This document shows, piece by piece, positions 2,967-4,513 of a DNA stretch of 64,000 bases (the first letter of the stretch is position 1; every line of letters starts with the position of its first letter). Origin of the DNA: Escherichia coli O157:H7 (GTDB lineage Bacteria > Pseudomonadota > Gammaproteobacteria > Enterobacterales > Enterobacteriaceae); NCBI RefSeq assembly GCF_013167455.1, contig NZ_CP038328.1, one strand, 5' to 3'. A program made the position numbers and the translations under genes. Under the pieces are notes generated by a model. That model worked only from the letters and a program-made list of their open reading frames with translations, had not been told where the DNA came from and made no database searches.

Positions 2967-3293
2967 TCATAACACCGTCGGACAACGCAAATCGTAAATC
3001 AGCACGGACACAGAAAACGGCAGTTCCCCCTGCACGAGGTCTTCCCGCTCAGCAAGATCCGGATTCCGGTACAGCATCCCGGTCAGTCGCATGGCAGCCC
3101 CCTTCATCCGGGTTAATGCCTCGCCCGGGATCAGCTCACCGTCCTCACGAATCACCTTATCCCGGCTGCCCTGAATGTAGGCCAGCAGCACGGCGGTAGC
3201 CTGACGAACCTTGTCCATCAGCATGTCATCATCCGCGTCATGGTCAACACGCAGATGTGCCTTGATCTCTTCCAGTGTCAGTAATGCCGTCAT
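2967..3293 (-). CDS. head-tail connector protein (gp6-like)
   Basis: 108 aa; MTALLTLEEIKAHLRVDHDADDDMLMDKVRQA is characteristic of gp6-type connectors. Confidence 0.6.
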   Translation of the reverse strand: MTALLTLEEIKAHLRVDHDADDDMLMDKVRQATAVLLAYIQGSRDKVIREDGELIPGEALTRMKGAAMRLTGMLYRNPDLAEREDLVQGELPFSVSVLIYDLRCPTVL

Positions 3294-4513
3294 TTTCCGC
3301 CTCCTGCATCCCGTCCACGTTTTGCAGCCAGGGTCCAGCCTGATGAATGAGCTTCTCCGGGTTTATCACCGGTCATACTGTTGCAGTGCCACAGCGAGCC
3401 CCCCCACGTCACCGTATCGCCGGGGTGGTAGGTTTCACCGGCTCTGAACACACCGCGGTAGAGCATCACCGGCAGGGAAAATGTTTTTTCCGTACACCGG
3501 CCACTGCTCTGCCGGATCACCACAGAGAACAACCGCTCATCCGTCATGCTGACGTCGATATCCGCCACCCCGTCAACCAGGCATTCCCATCCCCGCATCC
3601 CGTGCGTTTTTTCATACGCCCGCCAGAGTCCACCCAGGTGTGTGGCATACGTGCCCCGGGGAAAGGATTTTTGATCGTCAATAGCGGGGAGCACTTCCAG
3701 TGCCGTGGCATCACGCCCGTCCTGCGGAGCCGGAAGGGCATTCACCGCCTCCAGAACCGCCTGCTTCAGTACTTCCGGATCGTAATCACGACCATCACGC
3801 GGAGCAGGGATATGGCTTACGGCCTCTTTCACCATCTGCTCAAGCATCGGACGCACATCATCGGGGGTGATACTTTTGCCGTCCGCCGGTACCGGAATAT
3901 TCGCAACCGCATCATTCACCGCCTGCTGCAGTACATCCGGATCATAATCACGACCGTCACGCGGAGCAGGGATATGGCTTACAGCCTCTTTCACCATCTG
4001 CTCAAGCATCGGACGCACATCATCGGGGGTGATACTTTTGCCGTCCGCCGGTACCGGAATATTCGCAACCGCATCATTCACCGCCTGCTTCAGTACTTCC
4101 GGATCATAATCACGACCGTCACGCGGAGCAGGGATATGGCTTACAGCCTCTTTCACCATCTGCTCAAGCATCGGACGCACATCATCGGGGGTGATACTTT
4201 TGCCGTCCGCCGGTACCGGAATATTCGCAACCGCATCATTCACCGCCTGCTGCAGTACATCCGGATCATAATCACGACCATCACGCGGTACCGGAATGGT
4301 CCCCACAGCGTCATCCACCATCGCCTGCAGAACCGGATGTACCTCATCCACCGTCACATGCTTCTGTAATACCGCCGACAGGGAAGCCAGTTTCTCTTCA
4401 AACGCTTGTGCCTGCGCGGCCATCTTCCCCTCAAATGTGCGCTGTAAATCCGCCAGCACCGTGGAGAATTCTTCGCCCAGTGCACGAATAATGGACAGTT
4501 CCCGTTCCGTCAT
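3290..4513 (-). CDS. virion-module protein with about 3.3 tandem 58-aa repeats, function unknown
   Basis: 407-aa ORF between portal and connector genes; coiled-coil N-terminus, then repeated unit …IPVPADGKSITPDDVRPMLEQMVKEAVSHIPAPRDGRDYDPEVLKQAVNDAVAN…. Confidence 0.6.
   Translation of the reverse strand: MTERELSIIRALGEEFSTVLADLQRTFEGKMAAQAQAFEEKLASLSAVLQKHVTVDEVHPVLQAMVDDAVGTIPVPRDGRDYDPDVLQQAVNDAVANIPVPADGKSITPDDVRPMLEQMVKEAVSHIPAPRDGRDYDPEVLKQAVNDAVANIPVPADGKSITPDDVRPMLEQMVKEAVSHIPAPRDGRDYDPDVLQQAVNDAVANIPVPADGKSITPDDVRPMLEQMVKEAVSHIPAPRDGRDYDPEVLKQAVLEAVNALPAPQDGRDATALEVLPAIDDQKSFPRGTYATHLGGLWRAYEKTHGMRGWECLVDGVADIDVSMTDERLFSVVIRQSSGRCTEKTFSLPVMLYRGVFRAGETYHPGDTVTWGGSLWHCNSMTGDKPGEAHSSGWTLAAKRGRDAGGGK
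3750..4300. repeat. tandem direct repeat, 174-bp period, about 3.1 copies, in-frame within CDS 3290..4513
   Basis: Near-identical blocks beginning near 3777, 3951 and 4125 (ggatcataatcacgacc(a/g)tcacgcggagcagggatatggcttac…). Confidence 0.9.

Follow-up and report, generated by a model that had tools for sequence, protein, structure and literature searches.

The window, a 64,000-nucleotide stretch of Escherichia coli O157:H7 (contig NZ_CP038328.1 of assembly GCF_013167455.1), carries a head module in which a 407-residue gene, here called X, lies on the minus strand between the gene for an HK97-type portal and that for the head-tail adaptor Ad1. The open reading frame list and PHROG profiles agree on these neighbors, and the original prediction, made from the sequence alone, had placed X correctly between portal and connector genes. 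X matches positions 455 to 859 of the 859 positions of phrog_2271, as well as phrog_1289, and a gene that fuses the prohead protease to the major capsid protein (MCP) is part of the same conserved module. The features discussed here are as follows.

2967-3293, minus strand: gene for the head-tail adaptor Ad1, directly downstream of X (phrog_40)
3290-4513, minus strand: gene X, the portal partner, 407 aa (open reading frame list, PHROG, homologues, dN/dS)
3293-3733, minus strand: C-terminal beta domain of X (aa 261-407) with two CBM5/12-like modules (about aa 286-311 and 357-397); conserved
3734-4357, minus strand: whole modular spacer of X (aa 53-260; motif positions, charge, AF2)
3756-4288, minus strand: near-identical tandem array with a 162-bp (54-aa) unit in 3.3 copies (TRF, offset analysis, unit comparison)
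4285-4124, 4123-3962 and 3961-3800, minus strand: full repeat units (unit comparison)
3347-4369, plus strand: antisense open reading frame of 340 aa, a noncoding by-product of the repeat (open reading frame list, length scaling)
4361-4507, minus strand: N-terminal long alpha-helix of X (aa 3-51), a putative portal-docking element (AF2 pLDDT 90-94)
4510-4513, minus strand: ATGA overlap of portal and X (portal TGA at 4512-4510, X ATG at 4513-4511)
4525-4529, minus strand: G5 homopolymer in the last codons of the portal gene (junction comparison, genome counts, haplotypes)
4510-5874, minus strand: HK97-type portal gene, 454 aa (phrog_2271 positions 1-451 and phrog_12; PF04860 in homologues)
6086-8023, minus strand: prohead protease-major capsid fusion gene, 645 aa (phrog_617, phrog_80, phrog_10)

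An SD-like AGGGGG stands 11 nt upstream of the overlap between portal and X, and the X stop overlaps the adaptor start likewise by ATGA. Judged from the sequence, the portal/X overlap is a translational coupling signal, and such coupling would imply a low copy number, unlike that of capsid decoration proteins. Comparison of loci establishes X, at the sequence level, as a real and independently translated gene that is coupled to the portal through this ATGA, and it looks functional. The same cannot be said of the antisense reading frame: its length follows the unit number (178, 340, and 394 aa), and the repeat unit read in antisense has one frame without stops, in line with its earlier description as a by-product of the repeats.

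X is built of an N-terminal long helix, a variable modular spacer, and a conserved C-terminal double beta domain. A coiled-coil N-terminus had been anticipated, and AF2 models a helix over residues 3 to 51 with pLDDT above 90; distant family members also have an N-terminal amphipathic helix, and in fused variants the 49-residue helix of X continues straight from the portal C-terminus. The spacer, which is acidic (pI 4.4), alternates modules of 25 and 29 residues, each a PxPxDG(R/K)(D/S) turn followed by an amphipathic helix, and AF2 renders it at low confidence (pLDDT 45 to 65) as alternating 13- and 17-residue helices. Older, degenerate modules flank the young array on both sides, and homologous 22-residue modules occur in distant relatives. 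Designed helical repeats matched by the spacer in a search of solved structures reflect composition, and that sequence search found no relative of X among the solved structures.

The C-terminus is Trp/Gly rich, as had been noted, its last 147 residues holding all 5 Trp and 20 Gly. In the AF2 model, the modules of this domain adopt a three-stranded beta "ski-boot" fold that superposes on solved CBM5/12 modules. The Pfam match to PF02839 covers only aa 357 to 379 (i-Evalue 0.005, score 17.3) and falls below the family threshold, and a PDB profile search returned weak matches to chitin-binding proteins (E 0.05 to 0.6). Relative to the CBM5/12 modules of the ChiA1 ChBD, ChiB, and ChiC, the two X modules and the beta sheet between them pack as one 145-aa domain; the known systems sit in fibers or enzymes, whereas the context of X is portal linked. 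The conserved W298, W310, W376, and W394 are compatible with glycan binding but could instead be structural. Pfam scans of X found no PF04860 portal domain, and Pfam and PHROG scans together found neither a Phage_Mu_F domain nor a minor-head match, and no decoration family of the Hoc, Dec, gpD, or pb10 type. A Hoc-like match in the head module belongs to the major tail protein. Of the remaining hits to X, that to PF28083 ("QatB") is faint and due to chance, those to TetR_C_35 and DUF4244 (E > 4) were disregarded, and an NCBIfam match to Mre11 is meaningless.

The tandem array within the spacer is scored by TRF at 1010, with 97% matches and no indels. Self-comparison at an offset of 162 gives an identity above 90% over gene nt 223 to 597, and at an offset of 174 the identity is 0.28, which is background. 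The original prediction had described about three perfect 174-bp repeats; the array and its roughly 3.3 copies stand, but its period was put too long, at 174 bp (58 aa) instead of 162 bp (54 aa), and the copies are near-identical rather than perfect. Pairwise, the three full units show 2 to 3 differences per 162 nt, which upholds the suggested recent expansion, and a fourth unit, partial and diverged, begins at 3799. A 54-aa unit pairs a 25-aa with a 29-aa module, both made of a PxPxDG turn and a short helix, and the array arose by recent in-frame amplification of one such pair within the spacer. Short-read assemblies break here, leaving many homologues as partial proteins on contigs of ~2 kb, as would be expected were the block an assembly artifact or a chance similarity. 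The chance that it is either is negligible. Over 1,401 bp, the window matches the complete E. coli O121 RM8352 genome at 100% identity, the 3.3-unit array recurs in many complete genomes assembled independently and in phage genomes sequenced on their own, such as 2851, and both the TRF score and a clean 54-aa length ladder over ~80 loci speak against this explanation, which can be taken as already refuted.

Variation in copy number between strains, also foreseen, is extensive. Related prophages carry from ~0.3 to 6.3 units (0 to 6 full ones), with X lengths in steps of 54 aa (245, 299, 353, 407, 461, 515, and 569 aa) and with internal duplications of unit patterns, for example, ADG/ADDG/ADDDD. 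The number of units presumably changes by unequal recombination or replication slippage, and since it is the unit number that differs between prophages, only the length of the spacer differs. The spacer of some relatives, with ~20 modules, would be longer than the width of the capsid if fully extended.

In the E. coli clade, whether portal and X are made as one protein or two depends on the G tract that ends the portal gene. G5, as in the window, leaves separate portal and X genes, and G6 yields an in-frame 859-aa portal-X fusion, as in phage 2851. The G5 state is found at 707 places in 366 complete genomes and G6 at 1,335 places in 751, figures that do not form a G5:G6 ratio, as the G5 count was taken with one flank haplotype only and is an underestimate. 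G5 is present on 17 of 18 diverged junction haplotypes, with the ATGA overlap kept in all, and G6 on at least six flank backgrounds; for two G5 loci, the flanks match those of G6 loci without a difference across 810 nt. The tract may thus be a phase-variable one that switches reversibly, but it is only 5 to 6 nt long, and some of the G5 or G6 assignments from draft genomes may reflect sequencing errors in the homopolymer. The dN/dS of X is ~0.29 and is equal in split, fused, and mixed comparisons; both states are maintained, with purifying selection equal in the two. The prohead protease might cut the fused protein.

The closest described relative of the locus is EP2851_54 of phage 2851, a long "phage portal protein" (859 aa, phrog_2271) of Stx-converting siphoviruses, with residues 455 to 859 of which X is 92% identical. 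Gene order and neighbors are the same, and the halves are separate in the window as it has G5 and not G6. The "portal" label attached to X is explained by annotation carried over from the fusion, as X itself has no portal domain. More widely, X has 1,433 close homologues, and its family comprises 5,559 representative clusters for which Pfam and NCBIfam hold no model. In a sample of 149 family members, the C-terminal domain lies at the C-terminal end in 146, a Met start is present in 142, and a portal region is present in 1; some members of the family end in Gly-X-Y stretches. [quoted passage not shown] Of 68 classified loci, 63 are split and 5 are fused, and 4-nt or 8-nt overlaps occur in 54 of the 63 split loci. 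X directly follows the portal gene in the window, in loci L005 and L006, in Salmonella phage FSL SP-016, in BP-4795 and Lys8385Vzw, and in a Rhizobium phage, and protease and MCP share one frame in 51 of the 56 relatives with enough upstream DNA. The family is almost always encoded right behind the portal, in head modules of siphoviruses whose protease and capsid genes are fused. Portal-X fusions have arisen independently at least three times, in the E. coli G6 loci, in L007/L137, and in L114. Literature searches on phage 2851, BP-4795, the portal frameshift, and virion proteomics turned up nothing on the X protein, and a preprint on moonlighting of the T7 portal is unrelated to it.

Two other accounts of the split state have to be weighed against a functional, separate gene. 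In PGAP/RefSeq annotation, G6 loci count as intact and G5 loci bear the name "phage portal protein, frameshifted," and some phage records label the locus "portal protein (pseudogene)," so that the window would hold a frameshifted and inactivated portal gene of ~860 aa with positions 3290 to 4513 as its dead 3' half. Close protein matches are dominated by fused proteins, and many O157 prophages are defective, both of which favor such a view. We nevertheless judge it very improbable, given that the spread of G5 over nearly all junction haplotypes is accompanied without exception by a preserved ATGA, that there is no decay or relaxed constraint, X being complete at almost every split locus (of the first 32 examined, one is truncated) and as constrained as in fused loci, and that a stand-alone gene is the rule in the wider family, which has no G tract. 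Among virion-forming phages, 2851 is fused, but BP-4795, FSL SP-016, and Lys8385Vzw are split, and virions of a split-type phage have been documented by TEM (PMC7946995). The RefSeq annotation of the G5 state as a frameshifted pseudogene is very probably wrong. Hardly more credible than inactivation is programmed -1 frameshifting, by which split loci would produce mostly the 454-aa portal together with a fixed fraction of portal-X fusion, through slippage close to the portal 3' end. As in lambda G/GT pairs, the downstream reading frame is in the -1 frame and overlaps the end of its upstream neighbor, and fused products occur naturally. X is in the -1 frame in every split locus examined, a -1 slip of tRNA-Gly at G_GGG, ahead of the rare ATA codon, would yield the G6-type protein, L005 has a canonical T_TTA_AAA heptamer just before the stop, and fusions are tolerated. 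However, ATGA and 8-nt overlaps place X in the -1 frame by construction, so its frame is uninformative, and unlike the lambda pair, X everywhere has its own start (ATG or GTG) and SD-like motif (AGGGGG, AAGGA, or GAGGA). No conserved slippery X_XXY_YYZ was found in the 63 split-locus junctions (ACC AAA TGA, GCT AAA TGA, and others), only the E. coli clade has the G tract, portal and X lie 4 nt apart in the Rhizobium phage and overlap by 1 nt at one locus, and fusion comes about through a change in DNA, from G5 to G6.

Our preferred explanation, a real portal-coupled X with a G5/G6 toggle and internal attachment to the portal crown, is as a whole on balance probable. In the known portal structures, which come from other families, the C-terminus points into the capsid, and as the fusions always run from the portal C-terminus to the X N-terminus, X most likely lies on the crown side. 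X would dock on this C-terminal, capsid-interior side, in up to 12 copies per head, with its acidic, length-tolerant spacer projecting inward and the glycan-binding-like domain at the tip, and might act as a barrel- or core-like appendage of the portal or exit through the portal when the phage infects a cell. The P22 portal has a C-terminal barrel that projects into the head (PMC8402733), and T4 portals tolerate terminal fusions (PMC9026906). Like the P22 barrel, X in the fused variants prolongs the portal C-terminus with a helix, but there is no sequence similarity, X is usually separate, and the variable spacer and globular beta domain are absent from the barrel. SPP1 gp7 and Mu gpF are low-copy, portal-associated minor head proteins encoded, as X is, immediately downstream of the portal gene, and a similar status is expected of the X product, although its architecture is completely different.

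Candidate roles for X are portal appendage, ejected protein, and external fiber; ideas of a scaffolding protein or an anti-defense cargo are without supporting evidence. As an external accessory fiber or decoration, the latter an option raised in the original prediction, X would be a low-copy neck or head fiber whose carbohydrate-binding tip serves reversible adsorption to cell-surface or mucosal glycans and whose repeats set its reach. CBM5/12-like modules occur at the tips of phage tail fibers, tailspikes, and collagen-repeat fiber proteins, some family members have Gly-X-Y ends, fast-varying tandem spacers are typical of exposed proteins, and the major tail protein of the same phage bears an Ig-like domain. 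We regard an external location as unlikely, since at least three independent in-frame fusions join X to a portal terminus that is interior in known structures, fused loci are equally constrained, phage 2851 is infectious, and X matches none of the known decoration families. The recurrence of fusion argues, at the level of sequence, against an abundant decoration of the capsid surface and for a protein of the portal vertex, probably an internal one. The combination of CBM5/12-like tips, length-variable spacers, and occasional Gly-X-Y tails is typical of external fibers and fits an internal site poorly. More doubtful still than an external fiber is a packaged, portal-tethered "pilot" protein, of which at most 12 crown copies would exit via portal and tail, the CBM5/12-like tip binding peptidoglycan or envelope glycan, the repeat-tuned spacer spanning the periplasm, and G5/G6 acting as a heritable switch between releasable and tethered forms.

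In hundreds of complete E. coli genomes, many of O157 and other STEC, the locus is listed as a damaged portal gene. The evidence indicates that the split state is functional; if so, prophages counted as defective for this reason have been misscored, which bears on judging which Stx prophages can form particles. The natural series of repeat numbers (0 to 6 units), together with split and fused states in near-identical prophages, constitutes a ready allelic series. X represents a very large family, with thousands of 50%-identity clusters, that is without a curated model, and, in Rosetta-stone fashion, its repeated fusion with the portal points to an undescribed component of the portal vertex in HK97-like siphoviruses with a protease-capsid fusion gene.

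More interesting than the repeat in X, the 407-aa ORF that lies directly after the portal gene, are its partnership with the portal, a toggle between five and six G residues that separates or fuses the two genes, and a probable pseudogene misannotation. All neighbors lie on the same strand (-): large terminase, prohead protease-major capsid fusion, small conserved ORF, portal, X, Ad1 adaptor, head closure, Neck1, tail terminator, and major tail protein. The features discussed are as follows.

1040-1825 (-), major tail protein; its C-terminal Ig-like domain (aa 144-260) matches "Hoc-like head decoration" PHROGs
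3290-4513 (-), X
3347-4369, ORF antisense to X, 340 aa at 3.3 units
3756-4288 (-), tandem array in X; 3.3 copies of a 162-bp period with 97% matches and no indels (Tandem Repeats Finder score 1010)
4285-4124, 4123-3962, and 3961-3800 (-), the three full units of the array
4510-5874 (-), portal gene; matches phrog_2271 positions 1-451
4525-4529 (-), G5 tract; the G tract is the sole junction difference from the fused locus of phage 2851
5820-6041 (-), small conserved 73-aa ORF between capsid and portal genes; PHROG phrog_829, function unknown
6086-8023 (-), prohead protease (S78 type)-major capsid ORF, 645 aa; a coiled-coil linker joins the two

The protease-capsid fusion gene accompanies X in 51 of the 56 loci with enough upstream DNA; it implies that every capsid subunit comes with one protease domain. 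The 73-aa ORF overlaps the portal start and has a counterpart in the Salmonella phage and in environmental relatives. Through the Ig-like domain of its major tail protein, this phage already presents on its tail tube an accessory domain, putatively carbohydrate-binding. A tRNA cluster at 17667-17918 (-) encodes Arg(tct), Arg(tcg), and Met(cat), with no stx-sized ORFs beside it in the list of ORFs of at least 250 aa; Arg(tct) reads AGA and AGG, both rare codons found at the portal-X junction (AGG GGG ATA CTG AGA AAA TGA).

X aligns to positions 455-859 of the 859-position "portal protein" PHROG phrog_2271. Portal and X form a single 859-aa CDS in phage 2851 and two CDSs with an ATGA overlap in Stx1_EH1995 and the window. 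With five G residues (G5), the portal ends in MFRGILRK-stop and the X start ATG overlaps the TGA; with six (G6), the junction reads MFRGDTEK-MTERE in one frame. In 5426 complete E. coli genomes, exact-word searches hit the G5 haplotype of the window 707 times, spread over 366 genomes, and its G6 counterpart 1335 times, in 751 genomes. At least six flank backgrounds carry G6, and over 810 nt two of the G5 loci match G6 loci identically, so the G tract has changed length repeatedly, although a few of these changes could be homopolymer errors of draft assemblies. X is shown to be fused to the portal through a G-tract indel, and the change appears to be reversible.

Classification of 68 loci from diverse relatives gave 63 split and 5 fused ones. 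Split junctions overlap by 4 nt in 45 loci (first-ATG rule), with a few more through a GTGA overlap, and by 8 nt in 9; single cases show overlaps of 1, 14, and 16 nt and a 4-nt gap. SD-like motifs lie upstream of the X start in split loci, and the simplest reading of these junction sequences is that portal and X would be translationally coupled. Neither the G tract nor a conserved slippery motif was found outside the E. coli clade among the classified diverse loci, and programmed frameshifting is therefore not supported; a G/GT-type frameshift pair with the portal is not demonstrable. One 54%-identical relative (L005, 5990-6004; GCA_020885295.2, AP028510.1), whose portal gene ends CTT TTA AAA TGA, is the only locus in which a classical -1 site was seen, the canonical heptamer T_TTA_AAA directly preceding the stop and the overlapping X start.

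Portal and X have become fused on at least three occasions (E. coli G6; the loci L007, L008, and L137; and locus L114), each time joining the portal C-terminus to the X N-terminus. The environmental fusions, from viral contigs, are 1102-1246 aa long and comprise portal, acidic Ser/Asp/Pro linker, coiled coil, ~20 tandem 22-residue modules (LPxPEPLPDIxxMVxxAVxxI), and an X-type C-domain. Fully extended, their spacer would be longer than a typical capsid is wide inside. The module of proline turn and helix is thus ancient and free to vary in number, with up to 13 motifs in stand-alone family members. The C-termini of some relatives bear short collagen-like Gly-X-Y runs (e.g., GKDGLKGDRGEKGERGDSGRD) after a conserved KRGRDG motif, which hints at trimerization in part of the family.

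The tandem repeat of the original prediction is real, but its unit is 162 bp (54 aa) and not 174 bp (58 aa): self-comparison of X yields >90% identity when shifted by 162, against a background value of 0.28 for a shift of 174. Nor are the copies perfect, as the full units differ pairwise by 2-3 nt per 162 and the partial fourth has diverged. Each unit consists of 25- and 29-residue modules, in both of which a PxPxDG(R/K)(D/S) turn leads into an amphipathic helix; degenerate modules of greater age border the young array, extending the modular spacer over aa 53-260. An assembly artifact is ruled out, because the complete genome of E. coli O121 RM8352 matches the window over 1401 bp at 100% identity and the array recurs in many independent complete genomes and separately sequenced phage genomes. 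The original observation is thus partly confirmed, and its interpretation partly supported.

Copy-number variation between strains, as had been anticipated, is evident across related prophages. Anchor spacing from N to C terminus in close homologues is 225, 279, or 333 aa, and the lengths of X in ~80 loci of E. coli type, drawn from IMG/VR and GenBank, form a ladder of 54-aa steps (245, 299, 353, 405/407, 461, 515, and 569 aa), 353 and 407 aa being commonest. Which single unit variants are duplicated internally differs from array to array (ADG, ADDG, ADDDD…; BB, BBB; CC; AA), which shows repeated gain and loss in situ; spacer length is thereby shown to vary by tandem-unit gain and loss. The young units are dispensable for particle formation, since X has 245 aa and no full young unit in the induced, TEM-imaged phage Lys8385Vzw. 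The antisense ORF is, as proposed, a by-product of the repeat: it measures 178, 340, and 394 aa at 0.3, 3.3, and 4.3 units, growing with unit number because one antisense frame of the unit is stop-free.

In an AlphaFold2 model built with 105 sequences, residues 3-51 form a confidently predicted helix, the spacer is a low-confidence series of alternating 13- and 17-residue helices, and the all-beta C-domain (~289-397), shown to have a CBM5/12-like fold, is very confident (pLDDT 95-98). In established portal structures, the C-termini (crown) face the capsid interior. Fusion of X to this terminus is tolerated and maintained, the portal C-terminus faces the interior at the P22 barrel (PMC8402733), and T4 portals take terminal fusions in viable particles (PMC9026906); the N-terminal helix would therefore normally dock X to the crown side of the portal, in up to 12 copies inside the head. 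Its role there could be that of an appendage, barrel- or core-like, that organizes the DNA end; alternatively, X may be released at infection, its tip putatively binding a glycan of the envelope. The chief alternative, an external fiber on neck or head, accounts for the CBM-like tip and the variable spacer but is at odds with the fusion topology. X lacks a portal domain, and identities as a portal protein, a Mu F/gp7 homologue, or a known decoration protein were rejected. Its gene position and proposed location recall the P22 barrel and gp7/MuF, and its C-domain fold recalls fiber tips; we rate X among portal-vertex accessory proteins. Literature searches found no paper describing X.

RefSeq labels G5 "phage portal protein, frameshifted" and G6 an intact long portal. 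Several observations counter the pseudogene reading. Of 18 diverged junction haplotypes, 17 have G5 together with the ATGA overlap, and G6 is found mainly on one. Nearly every split locus has an intact X (of the first 32 examined, one was truncated), and the nonrepeat parts of X give a dN/dS of 0.29 whether split, fused, or mixed pairs are compared. The family numbers 5559 representative clusters at E<=1e-3; in the top 149 representatives, a portal region is present in 1, a Met start in 142, and the same C-domain at the end in 146, so that a stand-alone protein is the rule in the wider family. Three phages obtained as infectious particles by isolation or induction, BP-4795, Salmonella FSL SP-016, and Lys8385Vzw, are split. 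Together these findings show X to be a constrained, separately initiated gene. The RefSeq/PGAP call of one frameshifted portal pseudogene (as at the RefSeq loci L003 and L004) is probably a misannotation of two functional genes. Such misannotation may be systematic across hundreds of complete E. coli genomes, with practical consequences for the annotation of STEC prophages.
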